Shown here: positions 1 to 30,436 of the stretch, piece after piece | How the letters are laid out: each line of letters starts with the position of its first letter | Numbering within the stretch: the stretch's first letter is position 1 | Virus record (IMG/VR): IMGVR_UViG_2693429557_000019 | Length of the DNA stretch: 30,436 bases | Source of the DNA: a virus | Taxonomy: Duplodnaviria > Heunggongvirae > Uroviricota > Caudoviricetes | Reading direction: 5' to 3' (one strand) | Notes under the pieces: generated by a model | Told to the model about the DNA's origin: nothing | Databases searched by the model: none | What the model saw: only the letters and a program-made list of their open reading frames with translations | Position numbers and translations under genes: made by a program

Positions 1-219
1 TCACATCCACATAATTTGCTGCCCTGACGGCAACGGGTGCGGCCTTACGGCGTGGACTTCTCCCGGCTTCACGATGTATCGCTGTACCGACTCATAAGTG
101 ATGAACGTGGCGCTGCAATTCACGTTCTGGCACTGGTGATAACGCTCTTTTGTCGTGTCAGTGATATAGCGACTTGTACGCGCATGTGCGGCATGCTGGC
201 ATAAAGGACAATGAAACAT
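1..219 (-). CDS. ogr: Late gene transcriptional activator Ogr (zinc-finger), 72 aa
   Basis: ORF-track protein contains MFHCPLCQ...CQNVNC, a Cys4 zinc-finger arrangement typical of P2 Ogr/Delta. Start trimmed to the Met giving 72 aa, the size I recall for P2 Ogr. Stop codon is the first 3 nt of the window. Lies immediately downstream of gene D as in P2. Confidence 0.88.
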   Translation of the reverse strand: MFHCPLCQHAAHARTSRYITDTTKERYHQCQNVNCSATFITYESVQRYIVKPGEVHAVRPHPLPSGQQIMWM

Positions 220-300
220 CGCGAGCACCTCTTCCGGTTTTGTTGATGGTGCCATTTTAGTTAATTTATCCTTATAAAACAAACAGATAAATAAACCACG

Positions 301-1464
301 TCACTCATCATCTTCTGTTTCGTACTCCACATCAGAAAGCCTTACCTCAAGCTCCAAGGACGTCGTGAAGCCGCTATTATTGAGACAATGTGTCACCTTA
401 GTGATGGTCCAGTCCTGCTCGTCTATGACGCGCTTAAAGCCTGACACTTTAACCGGTGTTTCCGTGTAAATATCTGCACGACCGGTAGCCAGGCTGATGG
501 AGAACTCCGCTACACCCCGTTGCAGTTTATCCCACTTCGCCTGAGCGGCGCGCATGGCCTGCGCTTTTGTGGCATATACCGTGGTCAGGGCAAAAACGTT
601 GTCAGCTTCACCGGCCATGTATTCACCTTCGCGCGCTTCCGGTACTTTTGGCGCTTTCTTCTGCGTGACCGGTTTCGCTTTCGGGTGCTCCAGTGCGCGC
701 AGGTGTTTTTCTTTCTTTTTGCGTTTCAGTTTTACCTTCTGCTTTTGCGGCTTCGGGTCTTTGGTGTGTAACCACTTTGCCGTTACGCCGGTGTAAGCTC
801 CACGGTCAGCAATCGCAAAATGATGACGGTCGCCGTCGCTGCGGGTGATGGTAATCTGCGGGATTTTTTTACCGCTGGCCGTCACCCCCTGCCCCGCTTT
901 GAGAAACAGCAGTTTTCCCATTTTTACCGACACCTCGCCGCCGTTGCGTTCAGCAAGACGGGTCAGGAATTTCGCATCAGACTCCTGCGACTGGTCGATG
1001 TGTGGAATTTTTATTCCGGCCAGTGACGGAGCGACACTGGCTTCCAGCCTGTTACGGGAGGCTATCGCCTCAACAATCGCACCGAGCGTAATGTCATGCC
1101 ATGAGCCTTCACGGCGGGAATTGAGCGTCCCGCGAAAATCTGCACTCCGGGCGCGGATGGTGACCACATCCGGCGCGCCCCGGTGTTCAACCTCATCAAC
1201 GGTAAATTTCCCTTTGCATACCAGGGCAAAACCTTTCCAGCCGATATACACCGTCAGGACAGCGCCACGAACCGGCAGCCCGACCTGCCCGTCGGCATCG
1301 TTCAGTTCAATATCAAGCTGGTCAGCCTCAAAGCCCCGGTTATCCGTCAGGGTCATGCTCATCAGACGGTCGCTGATATTGCCGGTAATATCCCTGCTGT
1401 CGAGCATCAGCATGTAATCCGGCGTCAGCGTACTGCCTGCATCAAATGTCAGCGCATCCAGCAT
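301..1464 (-). CDS. D: Tail protein D (late control gene D family), 387 aa
   Basis: Full-length ORF of 387 aa, matching the size I recall for P2 gpD. Position U-D-ogr is syntenic with P2. Start overlaps the gpU stop (ATGA). Confidence 0.9.
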   Translation of the reverse strand: MLDALTFDAGSTLTPDYMLMLDSRDITGNISDRLMSMTLTDNRGFEADQLDIELNDADGQVGLPVRGAVLTVYIGWKGFALVCKGKFTVDEVEHRGAPDVVTIRARSADFRGTLNSRREGSWHDITLGAIVEAIASRNRLEASVAPSLAGIKIPHIDQSQESDAKFLTRLAERNGGEVSVKMGKLLFLKAGQGVTASGKKIPQITITRSDGDRHHFAIADRGAYTGVTAKWLHTKDPKPQKQKVKLKRKKKEKHLRALEHPKAKPVTQKKAPKVPEAREGEYMAGEADNVFALTTVYATKAQAMRAAQAKWDKLQRGVAEFSISLATGRADIYTETPVKVSGFKRVIDEQDWTITKVTHCLNNSGFTTSLELEVRLSDVEYETEDDE

Positions 1465-1943
1465 TATCCCGCCCCCGTCATACCCGTGAATTTAGTCGCC
1501 ATACTGCCAGCCTTACCGATGAGCGATTCCGCCTGTTTACCGATATCGCCATAAAGCGCGGCCAGTGACTCATCAACGCGGGTGAGCGACAGCGTAAAAT
1601 CAATTTTCCGTGGTGTGCCGTCTGCAAAGAAAATACTCCCTGTTTCACTCACCTTGCTGATGACATACATGCCGTAAATCATGCCGGTGCCATCCAGCAA
1701 CGGCCACGCCCGGCCTTCCTCTGCCATCAGTCTGAGCGTGGTCATCGTCAGCTTTCCGCCAGTCAGTTCGGGATAAAGCACACCGGCAAGTGTGATGTTC
1801 TCCTCACCTACACCGAGAAACTGATAGGCATCCCGTTTACCGATACGGGAATTTGACGGCCAGCGATAATCTGATTCACGCTGCATGGTCTGGTGTGGCA
1901 GCGTCTGGCGCATAAAAACAAACATACCTAACGCGAGCATCAT
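1464..1943 (-). CDS. U: Tail protein U, 159 aa
   Basis: 159-aa ORF between tape measure and D; size and position match P2 gpU. Confidence 0.88.
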   Translation of the reverse strand: MMLALGMFVFMRQTLPHQTMQRESDYRWPSNSRIGKRDAYQFLGVGEENITLAGVLYPELTGGKLTMTTLRLMAEEGRAWPLLDGTGMIYGMYVISKVSETGSIFFADGTPRKIDFTLSLTRVDESLAALYGDIGKQAESLIGKAGSMATKFTGMTGAG

Positions 1944-1957
1944 TTTTCGTCACCTCC

Positions 1958-4405
1958 TTAACCGTCATGCATCATGCTGGCACGGGCGCGCGCACGTTTA
2001 TCCCGCTCGTATTTTTCGAGCGCATCCTGTAACTGGCGGTCAAGCTGTGTCCCCGGTGCAGTACCACCCGTCAGGCTGATGTGATATTCGTTTTTACTCT
2101 GGTCCACATAAGAGCGGCCAGCCGGTGCCGTGACCGGCTGATAAGCCTGATAGCCTGCATAAGAGCTGGTCGCCGGAATATAACCACCGGTGCCATACGT
2201 GGCGGCATGAGTTCTGGCGGCGGTCTGGTCAAGTGTGTCTGACTCTTTGTTGATGACCCCGAGCTTTTCCAGTACCCAGTCAATGCCGCTGCGCAATTTG
2301 TTGAACGCATTAAGCGGCAGCATCAGCGCGTCAGCCAGTGCCTGCCCGAACATGACGCCCGTGTCACGGCAACGGTTCAGGGTGTCCTGGGTGGCTTTGA
2401 CCGGGGCAATCAGGTTTTTAAACCACTGCCACGCAGCCTGTAACTTTTCGCCCAGCCAGTCAAACACCGGTTTCAGTGGCGTGAACAGCTCCCCCACCGG
2501 CGCAAATGCCGCTTTCAGCCCTTCAACCACACCGCCAAAGAATGCGCTGACAGGCTCCCAGTATTTACGGATAAGCAACGCCCCGGCGACAATGGCGGCC
2601 ACCACAGCCACAACCGGCCAGCTAATCGCCCCGATGGCCGTCATAACGGCACTACCAACCGTCGTGAAGATTGCCCCCATTGCGCCTGCTGCCGCGATGA
2701 TGGCATTGATGCCGGTGATAACCGGCCAGGCTACAAGACCAATTGCACCGATGATGCCAGTCAGCGCCAGCGCGCCACCGGCAATGAGGCCAATGGTTGA
2801 CGCCAGTGATTTGTTTTTCTGTACCCAGCCGTCGAGTTTTAACACATACTTTGTGGCCGTCTGCGTGAGCTTACGTAGCGCGCCTTCCTGCTGGTCAAAC
2901 AGGTCTGTCCCCACCGCCTCATAAGCGGACTGAAACTCCTTAAAGTCACCGCCGAGGTTGTCCTGCATGATATTTACCAGCTCTGCGGTCTTCCCGTCTG
3001 AGGCTTTAAACGCAGCGGTCAGTTTGTCCAGCTTTCCGGTTGACGCGGCAGTCATCAGCACAGCGGCGGCTGAGCTGGCCTCCTCCCCGAAAATGGTTTT
3101 CATGTATTCGGCCTGCTGGGCAGTACCGAGCCGGTTTTTCTCAAAGCTGGCCTGCATTTCTTTCAGAATGGTAAATACTGGTCGGGTGTTTCCCTTACTG
3201 TCTGAGGTTTTCACGCCAAGCTCTTTGAGTGCATCCCATGCTTTTCCAGTCGGTGCCTGCAGGCGACTTAACACGGCACGGCTTCCCGTCCCCGCCATTG
3301 AGCCTGTGATTTTTGCATCATGCAGCGCCCCGACCATTGCGGCGGTTTCTTCAATGCTGACACCGGCATTTTTTGCCACTGGTGCGGCATAGGTCAGCGC
3401 ATCGCTCATGCCGTCAAAATCAGCGGCGGTTTTGTTCATCGTCATGGAGAGAACATCCCCGATATGAGCGACCTTATCGTTTGAAAGCTGAAAGGCGGAT
3501 TTCATCCCCATCAGCAGGGCGGCGTTTTCTTCCATTGTGCGGCGGTTCGCCAGCGCCATATTCAGCGTGACCGGCGTTGCCGCCTGAATGGCATCAACAT
3601 CCCCACCCGCTTTCGCAATGATAATCTGTGCACCGGCCGCATCATCCGCTGAGGCGGCGGTGTTGTCACCGAGCTGGCGCGCCTGCTTGCGGAGTGCAGC
3701 CATTTCGGCGGAGTCTTTTGCCACACCGAGCACAGCCTGCAATTCTGAGTTTTTCTGCGCAAACTCATAACCTGGCATCAGCAGCTTAACTCCGGCTATC
3801 GTTCCCGCAGCAGCAATCCCCACACCGGCAGCGCCCACTGAGGCCATATTTCCGGCCAGTTCCTTTCCGGCCTGATAACGCTGTTTGACTGCGTTAAGTT
3901 TTGCCTGTTGCGCACTGACACGCGCCAGCGCGTCACGCTGCCGGTTAAGCTGGGCGGTGGTTTCACTGATACGGTTTTTCAGTCCCTGCTCATCATGTGC
4001 AAGATTGCGGGTATTAATTCCCACAGCGGCCAGTTCCCGCTGCTGGCGTTTAACGGAATCTGTCAGGCGGTTATATTTCGCCTGTAAGTCCTCCGCCGCA
4101 CGCTTTGCGGATTCCAGCACTTTCGCCTGAGCACGGGTCGGGCGTTCGGTGTTTTTAAACTGTGTGGCAAGGGCTTCGGCCTCCTGCCGTGCCTTTTCAA
4201 GTGCATGACCAGTCACGGCGAGCTGTGCACTGGTCTTGCGGAATCCCTCAATACGGGATGCGTGACCGTTCAGCTCGCGCAGTGATTTTTGTGTTTCCCG
4301 GATATCCCCCGACAGCAACTTACTCGCTCTGCGGATGGATTTAAACGGGCGGGACGCCTGGTCAACAGCCCTGAGCAATACCTGTAATTTTACATTGTTA
4401 CTCAT
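1958..4405 (-). CDS. T: Tail tape measure protein T, 815 aa
   Basis: 815-aa ORF with a coiled-coil N-terminal region and Gly/Ala-rich hydrophobic stretches typical of tape measure proteins. Follows E/E' as in P2. Start ATG at 4403-4405 overlaps the E' stop. Confidence 0.9.
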   Translation of the reverse strand: MSNNVKLQVLLRAVDQASRPFKSIRRASKLLSGDIRETQKSLRELNGHASRIEGFRKTSAQLAVTGHALEKARQEAEALATQFKNTERPTRAQAKVLESAKRAAEDLQAKYNRLTDSVKRQQRELAAVGINTRNLAHDEQGLKNRISETTAQLNRQRDALARVSAQQAKLNAVKQRYQAGKELAGNMASVGAAGVGIAAAGTIAGVKLLMPGYEFAQKNSELQAVLGVAKDSAEMAALRKQARQLGDNTAASADDAAGAQIIIAKAGGDVDAIQAATPVTLNMALANRRTMEENAALLMGMKSAFQLSNDKVAHIGDVLSMTMNKTAADFDGMSDALTYAAPVAKNAGVSIEETAAMVGALHDAKITGSMAGTGSRAVLSRLQAPTGKAWDALKELGVKTSDSKGNTRPVFTILKEMQASFEKNRLGTAQQAEYMKTIFGEEASSAAAVLMTAASTGKLDKLTAAFKASDGKTAELVNIMQDNLGGDFKEFQSAYEAVGTDLFDQQEGALRKLTQTATKYVLKLDGWVQKNKSLASTIGLIAGGALALTGIIGAIGLVAWPVITGINAIIAAAGAMGAIFTTVGSAVMTAIGAISWPVVAVVAAIVAGALLIRKYWEPVSAFFGGVVEGLKAAFAPVGELFTPLKPVFDWLGEKLQAAWQWFKNLIAPVKATQDTLNRCRDTGVMFGQALADALMLPLNAFNKLRSGIDWVLEKLGVINKESDTLDQTAARTHAATYGTGGYIPATSSYAGYQAYQPVTAPAGRSYVDQSKNEYHISLTGGTAPGTQLDRQLQDALEKYERDKRARARASMMHDG

Positions 4406-4825
4406 TCGTGTTTCCGCTTCGCCTGAGCGCCTTTTCGCGCCATGTGATGAGTTCGGTCAGGCTCATGGGATACAGTTCTGATGGCGGCCAGTGAAATATC
4501 ACTGCCACATCCGCCATCAGGTCATCGACCGACAGATTTTTCGGAAGCGTCACTGCACCGAGTTCGGCGACAAAAAACCGACCACCTTACCGGCCAGCGC
4601 CACAAGGTCAGGCAGTTCCAGCGCGGCGACTTCCTGCTCGGTCAGCATCGGTGCCGTCATGCGCGGCAGCACCTTAATCAGTGCATCGACTTCTGAGTTT
4701 GCGACCGCAGCCAGACTGACACCGCGCAGCGTCCCCGCACTGGGTTTCATCAGCGTGACCTGTTCGATAACCTGCTCACCACGCTTGACCGGATTGTCCA
4801 GGGTAATCACATTTTCTTTGTTCAT
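4398..4825 (-). CDS. E+E': Tail assembly chaperone E+E' fusion made by -1 programmed ribosomal frameshift (about 142 aa)
   Basis: Hand translation of the minus strand: a -1 slip on T_TTT_TTG (plus-strand 4571..4577) continues VAELGAVTLPKNLSVDDLMADVAVIFHWPPSELYPMSLTELITWREKALRRSGNTNE to a TAA at 4398..4400, which overlaps the T start codon. Total length about 142 aa, the size I recall for P2 E+E'. Confidence 0.75.
4550..4825 (-). CDS. E: Tail assembly chaperone E (zero-frame product), 91 aa
   Basis: 91-aa ORF directly upstream of T and downstream of FII. Ends just after a TTTTTTG heptamer, as in P2 gene E. Confidence 0.85.
   Translation of the reverse strand: MNKENVITLDNPVKRGEQVIEQVTLMKPSAGTLRGVSLAAVANSEVDALIKVLPRMTAPMLTEQEVAALELPDLVALAGKVVGFLSPNSVQ
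4571..4577 (-). promoter_or_regulatory. Slippery heptanucleotide T_TTT_TTG for the E/E' -1 programmed frameshift
   Basis: Plus strand reads caaaaaa, i.e. TTTTTTG on the coding strand, in the X_XXY_YYZ register of the E reading frame. Confidence 0.7.
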
Positions 4826-4881
4826 GGTTTTCTCACTTCTGAATCGGGGTTAACCGGTCAGCCAGGCTGACCGGATGAAAA

Positions 4882-5400
4882 TTACAGGCCGATATTGCGG
4901 CGGTGTTGCTCCAGCCGGTCGACGCCGTTCACCTTCTCAATCATGTTGATGGTGTCGATTTCGACCAGCTCCTTACCGTCCATCGTCAGCCGGAAATAGG
5001 TGCAGACCACGGAGATTTTCGACTCGGTGTCTTCTCCCTGTTTACCCTCGCCGGTGTCGATTTCTTTCTGACGGCCACGCATGACCACCTCTACGGCCAC
5101 CGTTTCGCCGGTATCGTCACGCTGGTAAGAGCCTGCAAAACGAATCGGCACGGCATCCACACCGGTTGCGGCGTAAAGCTCCCAGATAACCGAATCCGGG
5201 AAGCCCCCGAGCGACCACTCCATTGACAGCGCATCGTCATCAAGGCCGAGGTCTACCGGTGCGCTTCCGTTCATCCCCGCACCGCGATAGTTTTCGAGTT
5301 TACGGGTCAGTTTTGGCAGCGTGACGGACTTTGCAACGCCCTGATAGCTGTAGCCGTTCAGAAAGACGTTCATTAACTTGAGTTTGCGCGGCATTGCCAT
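4882..5400 (-). CDS. FII: Major tail tube protein FII, 172 aa
   Basis: 172-aa ORF; size and position (FI-FII-E-T) match P2. Confidence 0.9.
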   Translation of the reverse strand: MAMPRKLKLMNVFLNGYSYQGVAKSVTLPKLTRKLENYRGAGMNGSAPVDLGLDDDALSMEWSLGGFPDSVIWELYAATGVDAVPIRFAGSYQRDDTGETVAVEVVMRGRQKEIDTGEGKQGEDTESKISVVCTYFRLTMDGKELVEIDTINMIEKVNGVDRLEQHRRNIGL

Positions 5401-5412
5401 CGGTCAGGCTCC

Positions 5413-6603
5413 TTAATTGCTGTTAACCGAGGTGACCAGATTTGCCAGGTATTTATCGGTAATACGCTGGCGCAGGGTCAGGTTTTCAAGAGGAGGCACC
5501 GGGGTATAGTCGTAGTCGATATACAGTTTTCCGGCCTTGAGGGTTTCCGCATCGTTGGATTCTTCGCTGAACCAGCAGGTCGCATCCACGATATAGCCGT
5601 TTGTTTTCAGCTCACGGAATTTGGCATTGATGCCGTCAACGATGTCGCGAATCAGCGTTGCGGTGATGGGCTTGTCCACCGCCCACATGTGCGCCTCAGC
5701 CATCGTGTCGGCCAGCACCTGCGCGGTGCGGGTGTAGTTTTCAAAGAGGAACAGCGGGTCATCAGAGCAGGTACGGTTACCCCAGAAGCGGAAACCGTCA
5801 CGGCGAATCAGCGTTGTGACGCCTGACTCGTTAAGCAGGTCAGCATCGGTGCCGGACTCCTGCAAATCCCAGAATACGGACGCGCTGATGCCGGTAACAC
5901 CGTTCACCCCGACGTTGGACAGCGTTTTATGCCAGCCCTGCTCCTGGTCGATTTTAGCGCGCAGACCCAGCGCACGGGCGGTGGCATACGCGGTGGCGGT
6001 GGTACTGGCGACCGTATCCCATGCGAGGAAATCCGGCCAGATGACCATCAGCTCACGCTGGCTGAAATTCTGACGGTAGGCTTTCACCTCGGAAACGGTC
6101 TTACAGCCCCATGCGCTGATATACCCGAAAGCGCGCAGCTTCTGACAGACTGATGCCAGTGCAACAGCCACCTCTTTGGTGTCCAGTCCCGGCACGCCGA
6201 GAATACGCGGTTTAACACCGGTTACCGACTCCGCCGCCAGCAGGGCTTTCAGTCCGGTGTACTGACCGTTTTCGTCGGTGGTGCCGATGATATTGGAAAC
6301 GGTCTGCGCGAGTTTCGTTTCCTCGTCGTCGCCGGTGCCGTCTTCCACACGCACGACAACGGTGACCGGTTTTGACTGGTCGGCGATGGCCTGCAACGAT
6401 GCCGCCAGCGTGCCTTTTTTACCGGCCTTTGCAATTGCGCTCTGCACATTGGTAATCAGCACCGGTTTATTGAGGGGGAAGGTTTCCGCATCCGCATCGC
6501 TGGCCGTGCAGACCATGCCGACAATGGCAGTGGATACGGTGGAAATGACGCGGGTGCCGTCGTTAATCTCCAGCACCTGCACGCCGTGATGATAGTCACT
6601 CAT
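5413..6603 (-). CDS. FI: Contractile tail sheath protein FI, 396 aa
   Basis: 396-aa ORF at the head of the FI-FII-E-T-U-D operon; size matches P2 gpFI. Confidence 0.9.
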   Translation of the reverse strand: MSDYHHGVQVLEINDGTRVISTVSTAIVGMVCTASDADAETFPLNKPVLITNVQSAIAKAGKKGTLAASLQAIADQSKPVTVVVRVEDGTGDDEETKLAQTVSNIIGTTDENGQYTGLKALLAAESVTGVKPRILGVPGLDTKEVAVALASVCQKLRAFGYISAWGCKTVSEVKAYRQNFSQRELMVIWPDFLAWDTVASTTATAYATARALGLRAKIDQEQGWHKTLSNVGVNGVTGISASVFWDLQESGTDADLLNESGVTTLIRRDGFRFWGNRTCSDDPLFLFENYTRTAQVLADTMAEAHMWAVDKPITATLIRDIVDGINAKFRELKTNGYIVDATCWFSEESNDAETLKAGKLYIDYDYTPVPPLENLTLRQRITDKYLANLVTSVNSN

Positions 6604-6726
6604 CCGTTTAACTCCGTGGTTAATGGGTGCAACTATTTTCTGTTGGGCAGTGCATGAGACGCTATTTGACCTGGCTGGTCAGTGGATGAAACAACAGATA
6701 AAGAAAATGCGGGCAATTCGCCCGCA

Positions 6727-6744
6727 TGTCCTGATTTGTACACA
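6727..6744. promoter_or_regulatory. Candidate Ogr-binding dyad TGT-N12-ACA of the late promoter for the FI operon
   Basis: Sequence tgtcctgatttgtacaca has TGT and ACA separated by 12 nt. It lies about 125-140 bp upstream of the FI start on the minus strand, the arrangement described for P2 late promoters. Only the dyad was seen; -10/-35 elements were not mapped. Confidence 0.4.
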
Positions 6745-6942
6745 CTCATTTTCCGACTGACAGTTTACATAGCCCAAACGCTATCAAATCTGACAGCCTG
6801 CTATGAGCGAAAAGCGTTAAATCTCACGATATCTGCTACCGGGAAAAATTTCGATTATCTTCGATGGGAACTTTGATAATGTAGTAAATGCCATTTTCAG
6901 CGATCACTTTTCAAGCGTGTGTAAATGATTAATGTTAAAAAA

Positions 6943-6972
6943 TTGACTTCACTGAAATAAGGTTGCTAGTAT
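6943..6972 (+). promoter_or_regulatory. Candidate sigma70 promoter for the cargo gene (TTGACT-N18-TAGTAT)
   Basis: TTGACT at 6943..6948 and TAGTAT at 6967..6972 in an AT-rich stretch about 40 bp upstream of the cargo ATG. A Shine-Dalgarno-like taaggaa lies about 8 nt before the ATG at 7014. Confidence 0.45.
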
Positions 6973-7013
6973 TTTTGGAGCAACCATTAATGTTTTTTAT
7001 TTAAGGAATGTAA

Positions 7014-8432
7014 ATGACATACGCACTGATTGATAATTCAACTCTAACTGCAGTCCAAAGAATCGAGGGGAAAGTAAAAACAAGATCGAAGGACTCAGTA
7101 GATACAGACATAATAGCATTTGAGAACTATATACAGTCTATTTTGTTCTATGATCACGTTATCGCGGTTGATGATTATATTCCAGAGTACCGTGGGAGTA
7201 GGATTTCAAGTTTCAGAGAGATATTATTTCTTGATAAAGCACAATATGGGTTGGATGAAATTGAAAGTGAAGCAAAAAAAATATCTGATGCATTGAAACC
7301 TAAAATTCGTGGTGGAACATTTGTTAATGACGATTTTAAAAAACTAATTGAACTTCTTCAGACACATATCATATGTACATGGGACATTAGTTCAAGTGTT
7401 TATCATCTAACACTGAAGAACTTATCTGATGGAGGTAAGGAGTTTGAAAAATATGGTAACATTGCTGCTGCCATTTTTTCAGAACTGCGTGATGCTGCTG
7501 AGTCTGGTAATAGAACAAATGGCGATGTTGAACTTCTCGATCGATTTGGCAACCCTATTCGCAAGGGGTACAAAGTTCCCGGAGCAAAATGGGGGGATGG
7601 CACATCTGCTGGTGAAGCATCAGATGCAATCAAAGCATTCGTGGCTTCGCTTGTATGGCTGGCTAATCGGGCAGTATTTTATTCTCTCACAGCTAAGTAC
7701 CTTCAAGCAGATACTTTTTTATATCCATTACGTCAGGCGTATCAACAGACATATTTAAGCCAAAACTGTCAGTATGGTTTTGACTATGCTAAACATATTG
7801 TAGAAAACTTTTCCACTTCGTTAAGTCATGATCTCATTGATATTCATTCTGGTGGTAAAGCTGTAGCAACAGCAACTTCGCTTCCTTTATTTTCGGCATG
7901 GCTCGCAAAAGAAACTGGTGATCCAAGTTGTATTGTTGAAGCTGCTTATAACATAAGGGACAACAACGAATTTGTAAGGGCCCGTGAGAAAATGCGAGAA
8001 ATAAAGCGCTTGTTTGATGAAAATGAATTGCCTCAAGCTAATAAGTCAGTAAGAGCATTGCTTACTGAAGTATCGAAAGAATCAGATTATATTCGAACTA
8101 AGTATGGGCTCAAGACTAGACAAGGTGTACCTGTAACTAAGCTTGTACATGTATACAATACTGTTGCGGCTATTAATTCCCTTCCGAAACTACCGACCTT
8201 TAATTTTAAAGTTAAAGTTCCTGATTTCTTATATGATCTTAAAAAACCCAAGGGGTTTCGTGCTCTCTATCGAAATTTGACTAATGATCTTTCTACTGTG
8301 TGGTCGTTAGGAGAAGCTCGAGATATTCTTGGAAGTAAAGTTGTGATAGATAATCATGCAAGAATTTACAGTCCGAAGCATGAAGAACCGCGTTTCAAAA
8401 ACTCTCATTCCCCATATAAGAGCCCGATGTAG
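7014..8432 (+). CDS. Hypothetical 472-aa protein, AT-rich cargo gene at the FI/G (Z/fun) variable locus
   Basis: Long uninterrupted ORF on the strand opposite both flanking phage operons. Visibly lower GC than flanking phage DNA. Own promoter-like elements and RBS. I recognise no catalytic motif and no resemblance to a P2 protein. Confidence 0.8.
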   Translation: MTYALIDNSTLTAVQRIEGKVKTRSKDSVDTDIIAFENYIQSILFYDHVIAVDDYIPEYRGSRISSFREILFLDKAQYGLDEIESEAKKISDALKPKIRGGTFVNDDFKKLIELLQTHIICTWDISSSVYHLTLKNLSDGGKEFEKYGNIAAAIFSELRDAAESGNRTNGDVELLDRFGNPIRKGYKVPGAKWGDGTSAGEASDAIKAFVASLVWLANRAVFYSLTAKYLQADTFLYPLRQAYQQTYLSQNCQYGFDYAKHIVENFSTSLSHDLIDIHSGGKAVATATSLPLFSAWLAKETGDPSCIVEAAYNIRDNNEFVRAREKMREIKRLFDENELPQANKSVRALLTEVSKESDYIRTKYGLKTRQGVPVTKLVHVYNTVAAINSLPKLPTFNFKVKVPDFLYDLKKPKGFRALYRNLTNDLSTVWSLGEARDILGSKVVIDNHARIYSPKHEEPRFKNSHSPYKSPM

Positions 8433-8546
8433 CTTAAGAAAAAGACACGCCCACCTTGTGCGTCTACTTCTGGCACAGAGCGGACTCTCAGATTAGGCTT
8501 TACTCTGTGCCATAGATATGTAAGCTCACACCAGAGCTCATACAAC

Positions 8547-9074
8547 TTATTGCGGCATTTCCGGCCATTCAGGATTTGCAGGATCCACACGACTGACCAG
8601 AACACTGTAGCGTTCCCATGCCTCCAGTCGACTGCGCTCCTCATCTGTTGCCATATTCAGCCTGACAGCGCGCTCCAGCGGCAAAATCACGGATTCAGCA
8701 TCTGCAAGAAGTCTGGCTTTCCGATTTTCTGCCTGCTGCTGCAATTCCTCTGCCGTATAAATTCGTTTAATCACTGTACAGTCCTTAAACATCCAGTTCC
8801 CTGAAATGTCCGCCCGTCGGTTAGCAGTAATATCCGGCACTTCAACAACACTTAATCCATCCGGTCTGATAGCTGTCACATCCTTTTCCACATAGCGGAT
8901 AATATTATCTTTGTCGTACGCTATTTTTATCGTGTCATCAGCAAAATACTTTTGTTCTTCGTACCAGTTCTTACCATCTTCTGAAAAAAACCAGACAACA
9001 TCAAAGTCCTTTGTCAATTGATATTGTTCAACCGTTTTTGGATTACCTGCCGTTATATTTATCAAATGCTGCAT
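8547..9074 (-). CDS. G: Tail fiber assembly protein G, 175 aa
   Basis: 175-aa ORF immediately downstream of tail fiber gene H; size and position match P2 gpG. Confidence 0.85.
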
Positions 9075-9077
9075 AAA

Positions 9078-19175: not shown

Positions 19176-19233
19176 AGTTTTTCCTGAAATTAAGGGTTAA
19201 TCGTGAAGGTTTTCCCGGACTGACTGACGCCGG

Positions 19234-23068: not shown

Positions 23069-23073
23069 ACATC

Positions 23074-23095
23074 GCCGCCTGCGGGCGGCTTTTTT
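23074..23095 (+). terminator. Rho-independent terminator after Q
   Basis: Perfect 6-bp GC stem gccgcc / ggcggc with a 4-nt loop (tgcg), followed by a run of six T. Confidence 0.6.
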
Positions 23096-23235
23096 ACACC
23101 CCGCCATCACGCCCTCACACGCTCATCACCGCACAAAAAATCCCGCAGACACACCAACGCCCAACGGGCAGACTAAGCGCCGTCACGACGCGCTGAGACG
23201 CTGGAAAATAAAATCAGCACCACCGCCAGCGCGCA

Positions 23236-23254
23236 GTGCTTTCCCCGCCTCGCC
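23236..23254. other. cos: cos site: 19-nt cohesive-end sequence (reverse complement of GGCGAGGCGGGGAAAGCAC)
   Basis: Plus strand reads gtgctttccccgcctcgcc, the reverse complement of the P2 left cohesive end as I recall it. Adjacent sequence toward Q also resembles the P2 left-end sequence from memory. Confidence 0.8.
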
Positions 23255-23439
23255 CGCCCGCTTCATGGGGCGGTTTTAATGCAGTTGCATGAACACTCCA
23301 AGAGCACGCCAGCGCTAGTGATAACTAACAATAAAAGCGACTTCTGACGCATGCAAATCCATGCACATGATGGCATTTTTCATGATCTATGCGGTATGCT
23401 ATCCGCTTCAATTTTTAACACTTGTTAAGGGAACTAGAC

Positions 23440-24582
23440 ATGGACATTATTGATTTAAAATCTCAACTAGAAAATGAAGATAATGCCAAGAAAAGAGCAG
23501 AGTTGCTTGCTCAGCTAGAGGTGATAAAGCAAAACGCTGAAGAGCAAATTCGTGCTGAGCAAAAGGATGTGGATTTTGAGACCAAAGAATTTACCGTTGA
23601 GTTATTAGTTAATAAGTATCATAACGGATTAGAGGATGATACTAACGAACTCTTTGTTCCTGATTATCAAAGGGATTTTGTTTGGAGTGAAAAAAGACAA
23701 TCAAAATTGATAGAGTCTTTGATTTTGGGTTTTCCTATACCATATATATTTATAGCAGATGTTCTCTCCGAAGATCCCGATTTAGATGGGCGAATTGAGA
23801 TTGTTGATGGCTCACAACGAGTTAGGACTATACACGCTTTTATCCAAAATGAATTAGTTTTACAAGACCTGAAATCTTTAGACGTCCTTAATGGTTTCAA
23901 ATTCCAAGATTTACCATTATCACGTCAACGTCGTTTCATGAGAATTCCTGTCCGCGTTATAGAATTGAGTTCTAAATGCAATGAAGAAACCCGTAGAGAT
24001 CTTTTTGAGCGTATTAACTCTGGCAGCGATATATTGAAAGATATGGAAGTCCGTAAAGGATCAGAACTTGGTTCAACAAATTTATATACACAGGTTATTA
24101 AGCCATGCTCAACAATACCTAAATTTAAAGAATTAGCACCTTTATCTCAGACTAAAGAAAAACGAGATGAACGGTTAGAATTTACATTAAGATTCTTTGC
24201 CTACGTAGATAAGTACAAGAACTTTGATCATTCCGTACGGGATTTTCTAAATGACTATATGTCAGAAAATCGAGATATAGACGAAACTAAACAAAACTCA
24301 ATGAAACAAGAGTTTGCTAATGTTCTATCTTTTGTTGAAAACTATTTCCCAGCAGGATTCAAGAAAACTATTACTGCAAAATCTACACCTCGAGTTAGAT
24401 TCGAATCTCTCGCTGTTGGCGCAGCACTTGCATTACGTGAAGTCCCTGACCTTGTTCCCAAGAACTTAGATTGGCTAAGCTCAGAAGAATTCAAACGATT
24501 GACCACTTCCGACGGAGCTAATAGTCGCGTGAAGGTAATTGAACGAATTGAATATGTTCGGGATAAATTATTAGAGGATTAA
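23440..24582 (+). CDS. DUF262 / ParB-like domain protein (GmrS-like N-terminal domain, no recognisable HNH/DUF1524 nuclease), 380 aa
   Basis: Contains VPDYQRDFVWS and IVDGSQRVRTI, which fit the (I/V)PxYQRxxxW and DGQQR signatures of the DUF262 ParB/Srx-fold domain. N-terminal coiled-coil. AT-rich. Start taken at the ATG at 23440, 8 nt after an aaggga Shine-Dalgarno (the ORF track begins at a TTG at 23422). Confidence 0.85.
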   Translation: MDIIDLKSQLENEDNAKKRAELLAQLEVIKQNAEEQIRAEQKDVDFETKEFTVELLVNKYHNGLEDDTNELFVPDYQRDFVWSEKRQSKLIESLILGFPIPYIFIADVLSEDPDLDGRIEIVDGSQRVRTIHAFIQNELVLQDLKSLDVLNGFKFQDLPLSRQRRFMRIPVRVIELSSKCNEETRRDLFERINSGSDILKDMEVRKGSELGSTNLYTQVIKPCSTIPKFKELAPLSQTKEKRDERLEFTLRFFAYVDKYKNFDHSVRDFLNDYMSENRDIDETKQNSMKQEFANVLSFVENYFPAGFKKTITAKSTPRVRFESLAVGAALALREVPDLVPKNLDWLSSEEFKRLTTSDGANSRVKVIERIEYVRDKLLED

Positions 24583-24583
24583 C

Positions 24584-25264
24584 ATGGATCGTTTTCGTGA
24601 GGATTTTGACGAAAGGTCAGGAGAGATCTTGGCCTATTTGGATCTTTTGAAATTTATTGAGTATGCCGGTGCAGAACTGATATCAGCTGATGATAAAGAA
24701 CATAAGTTCTCCATTACTGCTCAATCACGAAAAACTCTAAAGGGAGCAGTATATATACTGTTATATAACCTCATTGAATCAACAATGAGAGAAGCTATCT
24801 GCCTTATTCATGAGACTATTTATGATAGAAACGTAGAATTTGACAAACTCAGGAAAAATCTCAGGTCAGAAATATTAAAAAGATTAAAAAATGAATCTGT
24901 AAATGTTGAAAGTTTAGTTAATCACCTTACCAAAGGTATATCTTGCGGTATATCTTATGGCACGTTCAACAAAAAGAAAATATTCTCAGGAAATATTGAT
25001 AGAGAGGAAATCAAAGAAAAATCGAAAATATATGGTTTTTCTACACATTCCGATTACACTCACACTAAACATGGTGAAAAATTAGCCACTGTTAAACAAC
25101 ATCGTAATGATTTATCTCATGGCAATGTATCATTTGCTGAGATTGGAAAAAATGTTTCATATCAGGACTTAGAGAATATTTCATTAGAAGTAATCGCCTA
25201 TCTTGATGCTATCGTGAATAATATAGAGCACTATATAAATAATAATGAATATTTAGAACAATAG
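24584..25264 (+). CDS. Putative HEPN-domain protein (Rx4H motif), 226 aa
   Basis: Translationally coupled to the upstream gene: TAA at 24580..24582 and ATG at 24584, with agagga 6-11 nt upstream. C-terminal region carries HRNDLSHG, fitting the HEPN R-x4-6-H motif. AT-rich. The HEPN call is motif-based inference only. Confidence 0.7.
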   Translation: MDRFREDFDERSGEILAYLDLLKFIEYAGAELISADDKEHKFSITAQSRKTLKGAVYILLYNLIESTMREAICLIHETIYDRNVEFDKLRKNLRSEILKRLKNESVNVESLVNHLTKGISCGISYGTFNKKKIFSGNIDREEIKEKSKIYGFSTHSDYTHTKHGEKLATVKQHRNDLSHGNVSFAEIGKNVSYQDLENISLEVIAYLDAIVNNIEHYINNNEYLEQ

Positions 25265-25270
25265 TTATAA

Positions 25271-25294
25271 GGCCTGTAAAGCAGGCCATTTTAT
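25271..25294. terminator. Candidate bidirectional terminator between the convergent HEPN gene and the methyltransferase gene
   Basis: Stem ggcctg / caggcc with a 5-nt loop, followed by attttat on the plus strand and an A/T-rich stretch on the other side. Sits exactly between the two convergent stop codons. Confidence 0.5.
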
Positions 25295-26319
25295 CATTCT
25301 AAATGGTTCTTGATTGATTGCCCAATTGCTTTTCCTAGTTCCACAGGAACAGCATTACCTATCATTTTCCCAATACTTCTTATAACAAACTTGTTTTTGT
25401 CTTCTACAAAAATATAATCCATCGGGAAAGTTTGCAATAAAGCAGCCTCTCTAAGAGAAATCGCTCTATGCTGTTCTGGATGTCCAAAACGCCCATTCCC
25501 GAAACCATAACAAAGAGTTGTAATTGTTGGACTTGGCTTATCCCAAGACATGCGCCCATATACACTAGCATACCCTTTACCGCTGGATTTCATATGACAA
25601 GCGGCAACCAACTCTTTCGGCCAGTCCTTCCATGTACCACCAGGAACAGAGTGTATAATTCTTTTTTTATTAATCGGATTTAATTTACTGGCTCTATGTA
25701 ATATATCATTTGGATCTGTTTGGCCATCTTCTAATGGAGGAAGATTTCCTATTGCATCTCTAACTGTTTTCAAAATAACATCGTCACGTTTTACTAACTC
25801 AATCGCCCCCAATTTTGAGGCCAACAATACATGACGGGAACGGTTTTGTGGGATTCCATATTCGACACAATCAATCTTAGACGCCCAAACATAATAGCCC
25901 AACTTTAACAATGAATTATAAAAATCATTATAAACTTTATGTTTAGTTACATCAGGAACGTTCTCCATTGTTACGATTTCTGGAGATACTTCGCGAATTA
26001 AACGTTCGAACTCATAAAGAAGAGGCCATTTTTTATCATCAGCCTTATCTTTTCCTTGAGTATATTTTGAAAAAGGTTGGCAAGGTGCGCATCCTGCCAA
26101 TACTTTTACAGACGCATCACCATAAAGCCTCAGCAGTTCCTCTTTTGTTACTTTAGCGATATCTTGCTCAATAAACTTAGATTTATTGTTTCTTTCATAG
26201 GGAAACCTACATTCCCCCTCAAGGTCAATGCCTGCAACGACATCAAGCCCCGCAAGCTGCAAACCATGAGTTAATCCGCCAGCACCACAAAAAAGGTCTA
26301 TCACCTTTACAGTCATCAC
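25294..26319 (-). CDS. DNA (cytosine-5)-methyltransferase, 341 aa
   Basis: Conserved C5-MTase motifs seen in the translation: FCGAGG (motif I, AdoMet binding), GCAPCQPFS (motif IV with catalytic Pro-Cys), ENVPDV (motif VI) and QNRSR (motif VIII). AT-rich. Confidence 0.9.
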   Translation of the reverse strand: MMTVKVIDLFCGAGGLTHGLQLAGLDVVAGIDLEGECRFPYERNNKSKFIEQDIAKVTKEELLRLYGDASVKVLAGCAPCQPFSKYTQGKDKADDKKWPLLYEFERLIREVSPEIVTMENVPDVTKHKVYNDFYNSLLKLGYYVWASKIDCVEYGIPQNRSRHVLLASKLGAIELVKRDDVILKTVRDAIGNLPPLEDGQTDPNDILHRASKLNPINKKRIIHSVPGGTWKDWPKELVAACHMKSSGKGYASVYGRMSWDKPSPTITTLCYGFGNGRFGHPEQHRAISLREAALLQTFPMDYIFVEDKNKFVIRSIGKMIGNAVPVELGKAIGQSIKNHLE

Positions 26320-26402
26320 TCACTCCAAATCTATACGATACTCAGTATACATCCCTTTCTACAAAATCTCGAGGCCTAACTTATAAACTCATATTTATTG
26401 AG

Positions 26403-27896
26403 TTAACGCTTCACTGAGTTTGACTCTAATACTGTTGAGAATCCCGACCACTCATCAGCGAGCGGGTAAGTGAATTTTTTCCCGTCATAATTTACGGTTG
26501 CCCCACGCGCCAGCACCTCAAGCTCCCATCGCTGCGGCCTGATACCGTTCTGAGCAAGGTCAACGCGGATACGGGTAATTTGCATTCGTTCCGACCGGGT
26601 CAGTCTGGCCGATGGCGCTATTTCATGCGGTTTTAACGGGCTTCCGTTTCTTTGCTGACGGTTTGGTCTTCTCAGTCCGTGTTTTAATGCACCTCTGAGC
26701 GCCCTCACAACCTCCGGGTCATTCCATTCGATAACACCGTCATCTACCAGATTAAGCACTGCTGCGGCGTGCTCAGAAGGTGTGGGAGCCGGTAACGAAG
26801 TATCACCACCAGTGAGCTTTCCACAGTTATTGACAGGACTCCGAGGCGCGGCGATGCCGCTTTTTAAAGTCAAAGGCTCAACGACCGGCACTTTCGGAAC
26901 AATGCGCCAGTCCGTCGTTCTGGTGATATGAATATGACGCGCGCCGAGATGCGGCGCGTAAATGCCGACCACTCTCTCGACTTCTTCCTCGTACTCGTTA
27001 ACTTCATCCGACGGACTACGGGCGACCCTGACAGTCTGACAATCGCGCGGGACATTTGCCCCACCCTGCGCGCTGATATACAGCGCAAAATCACCACTGT
27101 CTGCGGCGGCGCGTGCAGCCTCGACGCGCTCGTCAAACTCATCAGCAATGCTGACGCCGCGAGGCAATTTGCGTAGTTCACGGTAAGCCCCCATTGTCGG
27201 CAGGCCAACCGTTTTAAATTGCGGAATGCGCCACGTTGACGCCCATGCGGTAACAGCCGCGGCAGTATCTTTCAGCGGTCTGCCGCTATCGTTATCGAGC
27301 TGCCCATCCAGTGCATAGCCGTCGATATTTTTTGAGATGTATTTCGCGATATACCCCGCAGCACCGCCCCGATTAAGATGTTTTGCCTGAAAACGGTTTC
27401 GCGCAGCTCCTCTTTCGTCGCCATCCTCTTTGAGCGCGTAGCGACGCATGATTTCGATAATCTGGTTACGCTGGCGTGGATTACAAAAAAGCATCATATG
27501 CCAGTGCGGCGTTCCGTCGTGGTGTGGCTCGACGACTCGCAAACCGTAGACCTGTAAATCATTATCCTTGAATGCCGTGCGCATCAGGCTCCAGATACGG
27601 CAGAGATAACGCTGCGCATCCTTTGGATTAAATGCCTCATCGTTCCAGCCGTGATTTAGCTGGACGGTTTTACTTTCGCCTTTTCCAACCTGACGTGTCG
27701 GGTGATACTTTGACGGCGCGGTCAGCGTGATAAACATCCCCACATCACCTTCTGCGGCGGCGTAACGCTCAATACCGGCAATGGTGTTCATCAGCTCCAT
27801 CCGGCGAATTTCAGGATTAGAAATACTGCCCATCACCTTACTGATAAGGTCGATGCGCTCGCCTGTTTCCCTGTTTTCGAGATCACACGATTTAAG
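26403..27896 (-). pseudogene. A: Replication initiation protein A (rolling-circle HUH endonuclease), 5'-truncated at the IS21-family junction
   Basis: ORF carries the HUH motif (TPHWHMMLF) and a Tyr/Lys motif (YIAKYISKN) of Rep-type nickases. It is 526 aa against about 761 aa that I recall for P2 gpA. The first roughly 28 codons of the ORF-track ORF (to 27983) are read through IS-end tandem repeats and are not genuine gene A sequence. Junction placed near 27897 from memory of the P2 gpA sequence. Confidence 0.7.
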
Positions 27897-27910
27897 ATGC
27901 AAAATGGCAT

Positions 27911-28025
27911 CTGAATCGATCGCAGTTTGGCATTCGAATCGATCATGATTTGGCATCCATCTCCGATCACAGTTTGGCATCACAATCGATCACGATTTGG
28001 CATACTTCCGATCATTGATTGGAAT
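27911..28025. repeat. Five tandem 22-24 bp direct repeats (consensus about cgatcaNNRtttggcat), probable multiple terminal repeats of the IS21-family left end
   Basis: Units end in ttggcat at 27933, 27956, 27980 and 28003, and in ttggaat at 28025. A diverged sixth copy (aaaatggcat) ends at 27910. The array lies immediately upstream of istA. Confidence 0.6.
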
Positions 28026-28098
28026 TCGCCAGTCACTCCGGGAATTAACTCTTTTCACCACAGTCTCCATTGCCGTGTTTAAACCAGTGGAGACGTCA

Positions 28099-29664
28099 AT
28101 GTCCAAAAAGAGAAAATCCAGGAGCACTATGGAAACTTGTTTTAAGATCCTTCAGCTCAAGTTCGATAAGAAGCTGACTAACCGTTGTATCGGACTGACG
28201 TTACACATCAGCGCCTCAACCGTTTTTGAGGTTCTTGCCCGCTTCAAAGCCTCTTCTCTGTCATGGCCATTACCTGCGGATATATCCCATGACACGCTGG
28301 AGAAACTCATTTTCCCGCCCAAAGACACCTCTGCGTCAGAGCTTGTTATGCCTGACATGCTGTACTTCGATACGGAAATGAGAAAACCTGGCGTGACGCG
28401 CCAACTGTTGTGGATGGAATACAAGGCACAGGCGGGTGACAAAGCGATGGGATACTCACACTTCTGCCGTTGCTACCGGAAGTGGAAAAAAACGCGACGC
28501 CTCTCCATGCGACAGGAGCATCGTGCTGGCGAAAAGCTCTTTATCGACTTCTGTGGTCCTACGGTCCCTGTTATTAATCCGGACACCGGAGAGATACGCC
28601 GCGTGGCAATCTTCGTGGCTGTAATGGGGGCGTCCAACTATACCTATGTTGAAGCGTGCGAAGGTCAGGACATGATGTCATGGTTAAATGCCCACAGCCG
28701 TTGCCTGACCTTCCTGGGCGGCGTACCGAAGCTGCTCATCCCCGATAACCTCAGAAGCGCAGTGAAAAAAGCCGATCGCTATGAGCCTGTCATCAACGAC
28801 AGTTATCAGGCGCTGGCTGAGCACTATGGCACGGTTATTATCCCGGCCCGCCCGCGCAAACCTAAAGATAAACCAAAAGCAGAAAACGGCGTCCTCATCG
28901 TCGAGCGATGGCTTCTTGCCCGCATCCGTAATGAAACCTTCCACACGCTCAGGGCGCTGAATGCACGCCTTCGGGAGTTGCTGACGGACATGAATAACCG
29001 ACCAATGAAGGGATACGGTAATCAAACCCGCGCAGAACGCTTCCGCATGCTGGATGCACCAGCACTCTCTCCGCTGCCTCTGGAGCCTTATGAATACACG
29101 GAATACAAAGCCGTGAAGGTTGGCCCTGACTACCACGTTGAATATGCCCGTCACTGGTACTCCGTTCCACACGAACTGGTCGGTCAGCGTCTGTCACTGA
29201 AGGTGGGGCAGTCGGTGGTACAGCTCTGGCACAAGGGGCAGTGTGTGGCGCAACATCCGCGCAGCACACATGAATATAAACACACAACCAATCCGCTTCA
29301 CATGCCAGAACGCCACCGGCGGCATGGGACATGGACACCGGAACGCCTTATCGAGCAGGGAAACCGTACAGGTCCGTCCACAGGCCGGGTGGTTGAATCC
29401 ATGCTGAAAGCCAAACCCCATCCGGAGCTGGCTTACCGTGCAGTCCTGGGTCTGCTGGCACTTCAGAAAAAATACGGCCCGGAACGGCTGGAAAAGGCCT
29501 GTTACGTTGCCCTGCACTATAACGCCCCGGACAGACGCTTTATCGACAATCTGCTGCGTCATCATCGGGATAACGTTGAGCTTCCGTTATCCCGCCAGGG
29601 CGAACAACATCCGGCATATGCTTCAGAGCATGAAAACCTGCGTGGTCCTGGCTACTACCACTGA
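28099..29664 (+). CDS. istA: IS21-family transposase IstA (DDE), about 521 aa
   Basis: N-terminal basic/HTH-like region. Candidate DDE residues in FIDFCG, LLIPDN and AENGVLIVERW. Followed 16 nt later by istB. Start taken at the first ATG (MSKKRKS) of the ORF-track ORF, which begins at a TTG at 27997. Confidence 0.85.
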   Translation: MSKKRKSRSTMETCFKILQLKFDKKLTNRCIGLTLHISASTVFEVLARFKASSLSWPLPADISHDTLEKLIFPPKDTSASELVMPDMLYFDTEMRKPGVTRQLLWMEYKAQAGDKAMGYSHFCRCYRKWKKTRRLSMRQEHRAGEKLFIDFCGPTVPVINPDTGEIRRVAIFVAVMGASNYTYVEACEGQDMMSWLNAHSRCLTFLGGVPKLLIPDNLRSAVKKADRYEPVINDSYQALAEHYGTVIIPARPRKPKDKPKAENGVLIVERWLLARIRNETFHTLRALNARLRELLTDMNNRPMKGYGNQTRAERFRMLDAPALSPLPLEPYEYTEYKAVKVGPDYHVEYARHWYSVPHELVGQRLSLKVGQSVVQLWHKGQCVAQHPRSTHEYKHTTNPLHMPERHRRHGTWTPERLIEQGNRTGPSTGRVVESMLKAKPHPELAYRAVLGLLALQKKYGPERLEKACYVALHYNAPDRRFIDNLLRHHRDNVELPLSRQGEQHPAYASEHENLRGPGYYH

Positions 29665-29680
29665 CAGAAGGAACAACCGT

Positions 29681-30436
29681 ATGAGTGATAATCTGTTAAA
29701 CAAACTGACCCAACTGAAACTCCCGGCGATGGCCGGGAGCCTGATACGGCAACGGGAAACGCCTCAGACTTACGACGAACTGTCGTTCGAGGAAAGGCTG
29801 ACACTGCTGGTTGATGACGAGCTTCTGAGCAGAGAAAACAGTCGTGTGGCACGGTTGAGAAAAAATGCCTGCCTGAAATATCAGGCAACACCGGAAGGGC
29901 TGCGTTATCCGGCCTCAAGAGGTCTGCGGGCTGAACAGATGAGGGAACTGCTGAACGGCCACTACATAATCCACAGGAAAAACCTACTGATAACCGGTCC
30001 GACAGGATGCGGTAAGAGCTGGATAGCCAATGCGCTGGGCGAACAGGCATGTCGACAGAAATACAGCGTCCGGTACTGTAGAACCGGGCGATTACTGGAA
30101 CAGTTGGCTCAGGGACGTGTTGATGGCAGTTGGCTGAAATATCTGAAACAGTTGCAAAAAATACAGGTTCTAATCCTGGACGATCTGGGGCTGGAACAGT
30201 TAAGTAACGCCCAGTGTAATGACCTTCTGGAGATCACAGAGGATCGTTACGGACAAAGCAGCACGATAGTGGTAAGCCAGTTCCCGGTAGATAAATGGCA
30301 TGGTCTGATGGAGAACCCAACAACAGCAGATGCCATCCTGGACAGACTGGTACATAACTCACACAGAGTGGTCCTTCAGGGAGAGTCCCTGAGGAAAAAT
30401 CCCCCGACAGTGGAAAGCAGCGAAAAAACGAGTTAA
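29681..30436 (+). CDS. istB: IS21-family ATP-binding helper protein IstB, 251 aa
   Basis: Walker A motif GPTGCGKS and Walker B-like VLILDDLG. Start ATG at 29681 preceded by gaaggaa. Stop TAA is the last 3 nt of the window. Confidence 0.9.
   Translation: MSDNLLNKLTQLKLPAMAGSLIRQRETPQTYDELSFEERLTLLVDDELLSRENSRVARLRKNACLKYQATPEGLRYPASRGLRAEQMRELLNGHYIIHRKNLLITGPTGCGKSWIANALGEQACRQKYSVRYCRTGRLLEQLAQGRVDGSWLKYLKQLQKIQVLILDDLGLEQLSNAQCNDLLEITEDRYGQSSTIVVSQFPVDKWHGLMENPTTADAILDRLVHNSHRVVLQGESLRKNPPTVESSEKTS

Follow-up and report, generated by a model that had tools for sequence, protein, structure and literature searches.

When a prophage has lost functions that it needs as a phage and still carries intact accessory genes, does the survival of those genes reveal selection? 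The question is raised by a 30,436-nucleotide stretch of DNA from a tailed phage (IMG/VR record IMGVR_UViG_2693429557_000019; hereafter the window, meaning this whole stretch), which holds a P2-like prophage with a frameshifted capsid gene, N, a replication gene, A, interrupted by an insertion sequence (IS), and uninterrupted cargo genes at both of its AT-rich variable loci. A first-pass annotation, made from the letters alone, took a broken N and a broken A beside intact cargo to fit a decaying prophage whose cargo is kept by selection, and to strengthen the case for functional cargo. That the prophage is defective through two independent lesions is borne out by the sequence, where both are confirmed. 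Our analysis nevertheless leads to another answer: the element is an ordinary P2-type prophage of Shigella sonnei that was disabled very recently, and the intact cargo is a sign that the lesions are young, with no selection demonstrable. On the strength of sequence comparison, we read the window as the ogr-to-A part (27.9 kb) of a P2-like (Peduovirus) prophage in S. sonnei, followed by most of a copy of ISSso4. We give a probability of about 0.88 to this explanation as a whole, that is, jointly to the identity of the element, the lesions, the recombinant IS and the account of the cargo.

A P2-type prophage of Shigella sonnei

For the gene map, the full set of annotated proteins from the intact E. 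coli prophages 89-3156 (L004) and NH-21 (L001) was placed on the window. All 28 late-region proteins of the 89-3156 prophage are colinear in the window, at 92-100% identity (tblastn), and the conserved late-gene order of P2 is present, in prophage orientation, with homologous proteins: ogr-D-U-T-E/E'-FII-FI-[cargo]-G-H-I-J-W-V-S-R-lysCBA-K-Y-X-L-M-N-O / P-Q-cos-[cargo]-A. At the nucleotide level, BLAST against phage and E. coli genome collections gave 96.9% identity to the Peduovirus fiAA91-ss across 84% of window positions 1-25000. The exact P2 19-nt cohesive-end sequence, GGCGAGGCGGGGAAAGCAC, stands beside Q at 23236-23254 on the minus strand, where it coincides with fiAA91-ss cosL.

The host lineage is indicated by S. 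sonnei 53G (HE616528.1, L008), which is 100.000% identical to the window over positions 1-14405 and 15294-27897. The 53G prophage has the N frameshift and all of the cargo in common with the window; it differs in that A is intact (765 aa) and is continued by B, cox, C and int, and in that an element of the IS4 family lies 25 nt beyond the ogr stop codon. In 53G and its relatives the prophage is flanked by cpxP on the int side and by fieF on the ogr side. In the sister genomes both ends carry a 35-nt direct repeat, the attachment (att) core GACACCATCCCTGTCTTCCCCCACATGATGTGGGG, which corresponds to the cpxP terminator region; in the same genomes the attR copy begins 111 nt beyond the ogr stop, and int, C, cox and B lie beyond A, all of them outside the window. 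Bases 1-3 of the window are the minus-strand ogr stop codon and its final base is the end of the istB stop codon. Because both ends are stop codons, that is, because the window was cut at gene coordinates, it lacks attR and the last 99 nt of the IS. The first-pass annotation had recognized that the window begins exactly at the ogr stop and had placed the attachment site just outside it. Both statements hold, and inspection of the flanks located the att core and the cpxP/fieF host junction in sister genomes as well as the remaining 99 nt of the IS. No tRNA gene and no Rfam family was found in the window, and a literature search for a description of this S. sonnei prophage returned nothing specific.

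An inherited frameshift in the capsid gene

The major capsid gene N (18103-19175, minus strand) is a pseudogene through a 1-nt deletion. Alignment with three intact relatives places the absent C between 18648 and 18649 (TACCGCAATG becoming TACCGAATG), outside any homopolymer. Residues 1-176 (19175-18648) and 177-357 (18648-18106) are consequently found in different frames by tblastn, and the gene is split into open reading frames (ORFs) at 18627-19175 (182 aa) and 18103-18630 (174/175 aa). The truncated product consists of 176 native residues and 6 out-of-frame residues, after which comes a stop; the intact N expected of a viable P2-like prophage is lacking.

An assembly error at this place had been named in advance, together with an A intact upstream of the IS, as the finding that would leave the prophage potentially viable. 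The error can be set aside, because the allele is inherited and widespread: 540 blocks of a public collection index list exactly this 182-aa fragment, and the finished 53G chromosome has the same frameshift. In 53G and in CXAP01000002.1, the fragment stands beside an intact 765-aa A. Judged by this distribution, the N frameshift is a real, inherited and widespread lesion, the older and clonal one of the two.

A probably recombinant ISSso4 copy in the replication gene

The gene for the gpA-family rolling-circle initiator, which adjoins the variable locus, is truncated. What is left of A (26403-27897, minus strand) is a 3' fragment encoding residues 269-765; the 5' 804 nt are missing. The fragment matches PF05840 (4.2e-81) and is 97.6% identical to NH-21 gpA over residues 269-765. 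Mapping from the fiAA91-ss annotation would place the origin of replication inside it, at about 26829-26849. Homology to thousands of E. coli prophages ends at 27897, and ISSso4 starts at 27898 with TGCAAAATGGCA, in place of codons 1-268 and of the intact A that a viable P2-like prophage would have.

ISSso4 is 2638 bp long, has TG...CA ends and extends 99 nt past the end of the window. The 2539 nt within the window (27898-30436, plus strand) comprise the left end, istA at 28129-29664 and istB at 29681-30436, and are 100% identical to other copies. The 511-aa istA product matches PF22483 and rve and the 251-aa istB product matches PF01695 (1.2e-59), in the gene order of IS21; identical copies are labelled 'IS21-like element ISSso4 family' in RefSeq. 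Two kinds of internally deleted copy were also seen, of 2557 bp (L033/L034) and 2591 bp (L032).

The product of the A::IS fusion, called as 517 aa, is found in just one contig, CXDR01000004.1 of GCA_001260135.1; the truncated A read from a GTG start (526 aa) or an ATG start (525 aa) had no exact match. Over 16403-30436, the whole part of the window that lies within the retrieved locus, this contig is 100% identical to the window, which presumably comes from it. By this comparison the A::IS lesion is recent and private to one draft contig. As the N frameshift is clonal and the A::IS lesion private, N was broken first and A later.

Could both lesions be sequencing or assembly artefacts of a prophage that is in fact viable? 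The assembly is a draft, the IS is joined without a target-site duplication, as it might be in a chimeric contig, and error-like gaps do occur among the relatives: one of them, L014 (UFZL01000002.1), has 13 single-base gaps against the window, with P, O, M and A split into many ORFs. These gaps are almost certainly sequencing errors and advise caution in reading frameshifts of a single assembly as biology. The N deletion is of another kind, lying outside homopolymers and recurring in the many records listed above, 53G included. The left A/IS junction lies in unique sequence contiguous with the IS end, and the end of ISSso4 interrupts A even if the far side has been mis-joined. We therefore regard a viable prophage hidden by artefacts as barely credible.

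That A is truncated by an IS, as the first-pass annotation had it, is accordingly genuine; the description is also an understatement, since what follows the IS is not the rest of A. Downstream of the IS, CXDR01000004.1 carries yecR, azuC, yecJ, ftnB, araFGH and otsBA in place of the 5' part of A. The target site tells a similar story. At other insertion sites of ISSso4, nine of nine distinct, the element is flanked by duplications of 5-7 bp (for example AATGGG, CTTTA, CGTGAGG, CTCAGTG, ACCAGA, GACTAC, CCAGC and CGCTGG; the 5-7 bp range was seen among copies L026-L035, L002, L018 and L030). The copy in the window has none: its left flank reads ...TTTAAGA and its right flank AATGGGAATAAAACG (AATGGGA). 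Letter for letter, and with the AATGGG duplication, this right flank matches the one beside the resident ISSso4 copy that CP032523.1 has between ftnA and yecR. The absence of a duplication points to a recombinant copy and not to a different IS family: on this sequence evidence the element is a hybrid ISSso4 of the IS21 family with flanks from different loci.

How the hybrid arose admits two accounts. An ISSso4 copy inserted in A may have recombined with the copy between ftnA and yecR, which would have inverted a segment of the chromosome and split the prophage, parting the late and cargo half from the early half (the 5' end of A, B, cox, C, int and attL); a deletion of that size between ISSso4 copies would presumably be lethal. 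Alternatively, the draft contig may have been mis-joined at the repeat. The IS would then be a simple insertion in A, the yecR junction a scaffolding chimera, and the prophage not split, with the 5' part of A and the early genes directly beyond the IS.

Several considerations count against the inversion. The sequence past the hybrid IS, where contiguity of the early and late halves between attL and attR would have to be read, comes from a draft in which a chimera is possible; short-read drafts normally do not resolve a 2638-bp multicopy element (present at 10 places in 5 genomes), so that the IS may have been bridged by scaffolding and the join to yecR be an artefact, with the 5' part of A directly beyond. 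That the right flank is exactly the one of a resident copy in other S. sonnei genomes would also follow from a mis-join.

On the other side, the deposited contig is continuous, and two samples are listed with it. Fusion proteins predicted for a simple insertion, joining the A N-terminus to the right end of the IS (n=10, duplications of 0-9 bp), had no exact match in the collection, a result that is uninformative if contigs break there or if the gene is called differently. In other genomes, moreover, IS elements have struck this S. sonnei prophage independently. In L018 (CP179990.1), Q is interrupted by an ISSso4 that duplicated the 5 bp CTTTA (window 22207-22211). Another assembly, L009 (FUDK01000001.1), has a hybrid ISSso4 without duplications at G, which it joins to the hslO region. 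L016 and L019 have IS630-family breaks at window position 23316, a splitting of the prophage that lies in contigs of more than 2 Mb; real rearrangement of this prophage by IS elements is common. Taken together, the two accounts are hard to tell apart; a simple insertion beside a scaffolding chimera is quite possible, if somewhat less likely than not.

Intact cargo and the age of the lesions

The first-pass annotation was right that both AT-rich loci hold intact cargo ORFs, at 7014-8432, 23440-24582, 24584-25264 and 25294-26316. All four are uninterrupted and 97-100% identical to annotated E. coli prophage proteins, and their catalytic motifs are preserved. Other facts might be quoted for selection. 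In the remnants L015 (JAINEL010000039.1) and L016/L019, many phage genes have been lost and the three genes of the Q/A locus, which encode a DUF262 protein, a HEPN protein and a Dcm-type methylase (the trio), have been kept; in L009 the 472-aa gene of the other locus is kept beside an IS-mediated breakpoint; and the six single-nucleotide polymorphisms (SNPs) that separate the window from an intact sister all fall outside the cargo. The remnant in L015 (7113-16875) is 9.7 kb long, 98.6% identical, and lies between intact attL and attR cores; it retains int, a 564-aa A (an int-A fusion), the complete trio, U, D and ogr, and has lost B-cox-C and Q through E.

These observations lose their force once the age of the lesions is considered. 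Over about 27 kb, only the N deletion and 6 SNPs (at 829, 10749, 11880, 21388, 21947 and 22620), all six in phage genes, set the window apart from the intact sister copy CP065611.1. Identity to the 53G prophage and a distance of 6 SNPs to an intact copy leave practically no interval, and none that is measurable, in which neutral decay could have acted. The intactness of the cargo is uninformative because 27 of the 29 phage genes are equally intact: all but N and A are full length and ungapped, at 92-100% amino-acid identity (tblastn), the tail, baseplate and lysis genes among them, as had been noted from the letters alone. Cargo coding sequence makes up 15% of the prophage DNA (18% with intergenic sequence), and two random lesions would miss it with a probability of 0.72 (0.67 with intergenic sequence); of the 6 SNPs, about 0.9 would be expected in the cargo. 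The remnants that keep cargo are subject to ascertainment bias, having been retrieved with cargo or cargo-adjacent queries. Among 5426 E. coli complete genomes, the trio occurs in 9, and all nine copies reside in a contiguous, full-length M-to-A prophage.

A comparison of substitution rates in cargo and structural genes leads to the same conclusion. Proportions of non-synonymous to synonymous differences (pN/pS, Nei-Gojobori) against related prophages lie at 0.06-0.09 in phage genes; the DUF262-HEPN-Dcm trio has 0.14, based on 33 synonymous and 17 non-synonymous differences from NH-21; the cargo is not the lower of the two. As far as such ratios indicate, cargo and phage genes are both under purifying selection, which reflects their history as parts of an active phage before inactivation. 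That the broken prophage owes its intact cargo to selection appears improbable to us. The pattern of lesions is no evidence for it, and the intact cargo is better explained by the youth of the lesions.

Consequences for the phage and for its cargo

Late transcription in P2 needs gpA-dependent replication together with Ogr, and repressors of the P2 C type are not SOS-inducible. Without gpA there would be no rolling-circle replication and no replication-dependent late transcription. Because of this dependence, the intact tail and lysis genes are probably silent, to judge from established P2 biology, and without N no capsids would be made in any case. The inversion, if real, would in addition leave the element unable to excise as a unit.

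A headless prophage may also be thought of as domesticated, as an R-type tailocin that yields killing particles without capsids. The tail, baseplate, fibre and lysis genes are indeed all intact beside a broken N, and the N-broken allele is widespread in the lineage. A tailocin would be expected to have shed its head module, however, and no selective loss is seen there: P, Q, O, M and L, which belong to head and packaging, are intact without exception; the N lesion is a single base in a sequence 6 SNPs from an intact copy. The late genes would, besides, depend on the A that is broken here, under a repressor type that does not answer to SOS. Tailocin domestication was rejected on the intact head genes, and we hold it to be very improbable. 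The prophage is best described as defective by its two lesions.

The cargo is another matter. By analogy with old, tin and fun of P2, it would be expressed from the repressed prophage, and its expression is probably independent of phage viability. Promoter-like sites near the cargo are at or below the number expected in shuffled sequence, which speaks against such autonomy; as the promoter scans add no support, it rests on the analogy with P2.

An annotation of the region should name a defective S. sonnei prophage of the Peduovirus type, mark N and A as pseudogenes and record the ISSso4 copy as recombinant; beyond that the element is of little importance. Erosion and rearrangement of prophages by IS elements are to be expected in the IS-rich S. 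sonnei genome. There is a methodological lesson: intact cargo beside one or two lesions cannot be read as a sign of selection until the lesions have been dated, and here they are too young.

Gene map of the window

From its left end, the window carries ogr, the late-gene activator (1-219, minus strand; 72 aa, intact, 100% over 72 aa in tblastn), and the tail genes D, U, T, E/E', FII and FI (301-6603, minus; full length, 98-100% in tblastn, no gaps). The cargo gene for the 472-aa protein follows at the Z/fun hotspot between FI and G (7014-8432, plus). The tail-fibre and baseplate genes G, H, I, J, W and V (8547-13822, minus) are full length by tblastn, as are S, R, lysC/lysB/lysA, K (endolysin), Y (holin), X, L and M (13889-18099, minus). 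Beyond the N pseudogene come the capsid scaffold gene O (19234-20088, minus; intact) and, in the opposite direction, P (large terminase) and Q (portal) (20262-23068, plus; both intact). The cargo at the old/tin hotspot consists of genes for a 380-aa DUF262 (GmrSD_N, ParB-like) protein (23440-24582, plus), a 226-aa HEPN nuclease of the MAE_28990 family (24584-25264, plus) and a 340-aa C5 cytosine DNA methyltransferase of the Dcm type (25294-26316, minus), next to the A fragment and ISSso4. The two cargo loci are the sole low-GC stretches, with GC contents of 0.33-0.43 (0.35-0.43 at the FI/G locus) against 0.53-0.61 in the backbone.

Some variation was seen in the tail-fibre gene H. Window positions 10389-10881 contain internal imperfect repeats of about 88% identity. 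Sister prophages differ in the length of H (728 aa in L005 and 771 aa in L010, against 772 aa in the window), and substitutions are clustered at 10533-10629 in L005; the tail fibre is prone to recombination.

Cargo of the two variable loci

At the Q/A locus, the DUF262 protein, a putative sensor/NTPase, matches PF03235 (7.7e-26) and, among PADLOC models, NsnA (1.6e-54) and PD-T4-2_A (2.4e-35, residues 73-372 of 380), and shows the motifs QRDFVW and VDGSQR. The HEPN protein matches PF18737 (5.8e-29) and PF18735 (8e-9), with an Rx4H motif, RNDLSH, at residues 174-179. The methylase matches PF00145 (3.4e-58) and TIGR00675 and has the motifs FCGAGG, PC and ENV; an exact-product look-up found the 340-aa ATG form on record and did not find the 341-aa GTG form. 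Its gene is convergent with the HEPN gene, and the 29-nt gap between the two contains a GC-rich hairpin, GGCCTGTAAAGCAGGCC, at 25271-25287, a plausible candidate for a bidirectional terminator.

The 472-aa protein of the FI/G locus belongs to PHROG 13435, to which no function is assigned there. It gave no match to Pfam, NCBIfam or PADLOC, and a PDB sequence profile search and a BFVD fold search returned nothing; a weak PIN/VapC-like fold is seen at its N-terminus. Its homologues are uniform, at 472 aa and 50-90% identity, and are stand-alone genes in unrelated contexts, in Enterobacterales (Pantoea, Serratia, Pectobacterium), Acinetobacter, Vibrio, Halomonas, Desulfotalea and Citrifermentans. 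A bolder proposal would make the protein the founder of a new single-gene anti-phage family, its N-terminus forming a PIN-like nuclease domain and its C-terminus a helical one, and would have the N-frameshifted prophage locked into a lineage of S. sonnei as an immobile two-cassette defence island. We think this unlikely; if it were true, the earlier idea of selection would be right, for reasons invisible in the window itself. The uncharacterized hotspot gene is the one lead worth keeping.

Both cassettes are much less diverged than the backbone that carries them. Over window positions 6604-9074, the 472-aa gene and G are 100% identical to E. coli 89-3156, next to 99.0% for FI and 95.9% for H; over 23255-26402, the trio is 99.7-100% identical to L020/L021, and the flanking Q and A reach 96-98%. 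Such contrasts indicate that P2-like backbones have recently exchanged cassettes, and G, a gene of tail-fibre assembly, appears to move with the Z/fun cassette.

Comparison with known systems

The best PADLOC match of the DUF262 protein, near full length, is NsnA of Menshen (NsnABC; Millman et al. 2022; PMC12065111). Membership was rejected, as the locus has neither the NsnB ABC ATPase nor NsnC: the sole downstream gene encodes the 226-aa HEPN protein, and the ORF map, PADLOC and Pfam reveal no ATPase in 23069-26402.

A closer parallel is PD-T4-2, an experimentally validated anti-T4 system from ECOR65 (Vassallo et al. 2022, PMC9519451), described elsewhere as DUF262 plus HEPN PF18735 (PMC10952713). 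The window shares with it the two-gene DUF262 and HEPN architecture, a DUF262 component that matches the PADLOC model, and a HEPN protein that also matches PF18735. The pair further sits in the hotspot between the portal and replication genes of P2, from which four of the seven P2-borne systems of Vassallo et al. come (PMC9519451). It differs in that the HEPN protein matches no PADLOC model, PD-T4-2_B included (E <= 0.01), in that the best Pfam match of this protein is PF18737 and not PF18735, and in the added convergent Dcm methylase. Because the HEPN partner is without a PADLOC match, we call the pair, together with its methylase, PD-T4-2-like on the basis of its domains and do not call it a member.

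The positions of the cargo are equally familiar. The Q/A (old/tin) and FI/G (Z/fun) loci are known defence hotspots of P2 (Rousset et al. 2022, PMC9122126; Vassallo et al. 2022, PMC9519451), and the low-GC cassettes of the window occupy exactly these two positions. A difference from the described occupants is that the gene at Z/fun, the 472-aa one, corresponds to no PADLOC, Pfam or NCBIfam model.

As a type, the element is already known. The window resembles P2 and other Peduovirus members (fiAA91-ss, NC_022750; the 89-3156 and NH-21 prophages) in 95-97% nucleotide identity of the late region, in gene order, in an identical cos 19-mer and in the same two variable loci, FI/G and Q/A. It departs from them in the frameshift of N, in an A shortened by 804 nt at its 5' end, and in its cargo, the place of which is taken by cdt genes in fiAA91-ss, by an ATP-dependent nuclease in 89-3156 and by old, tin and fun in P2.

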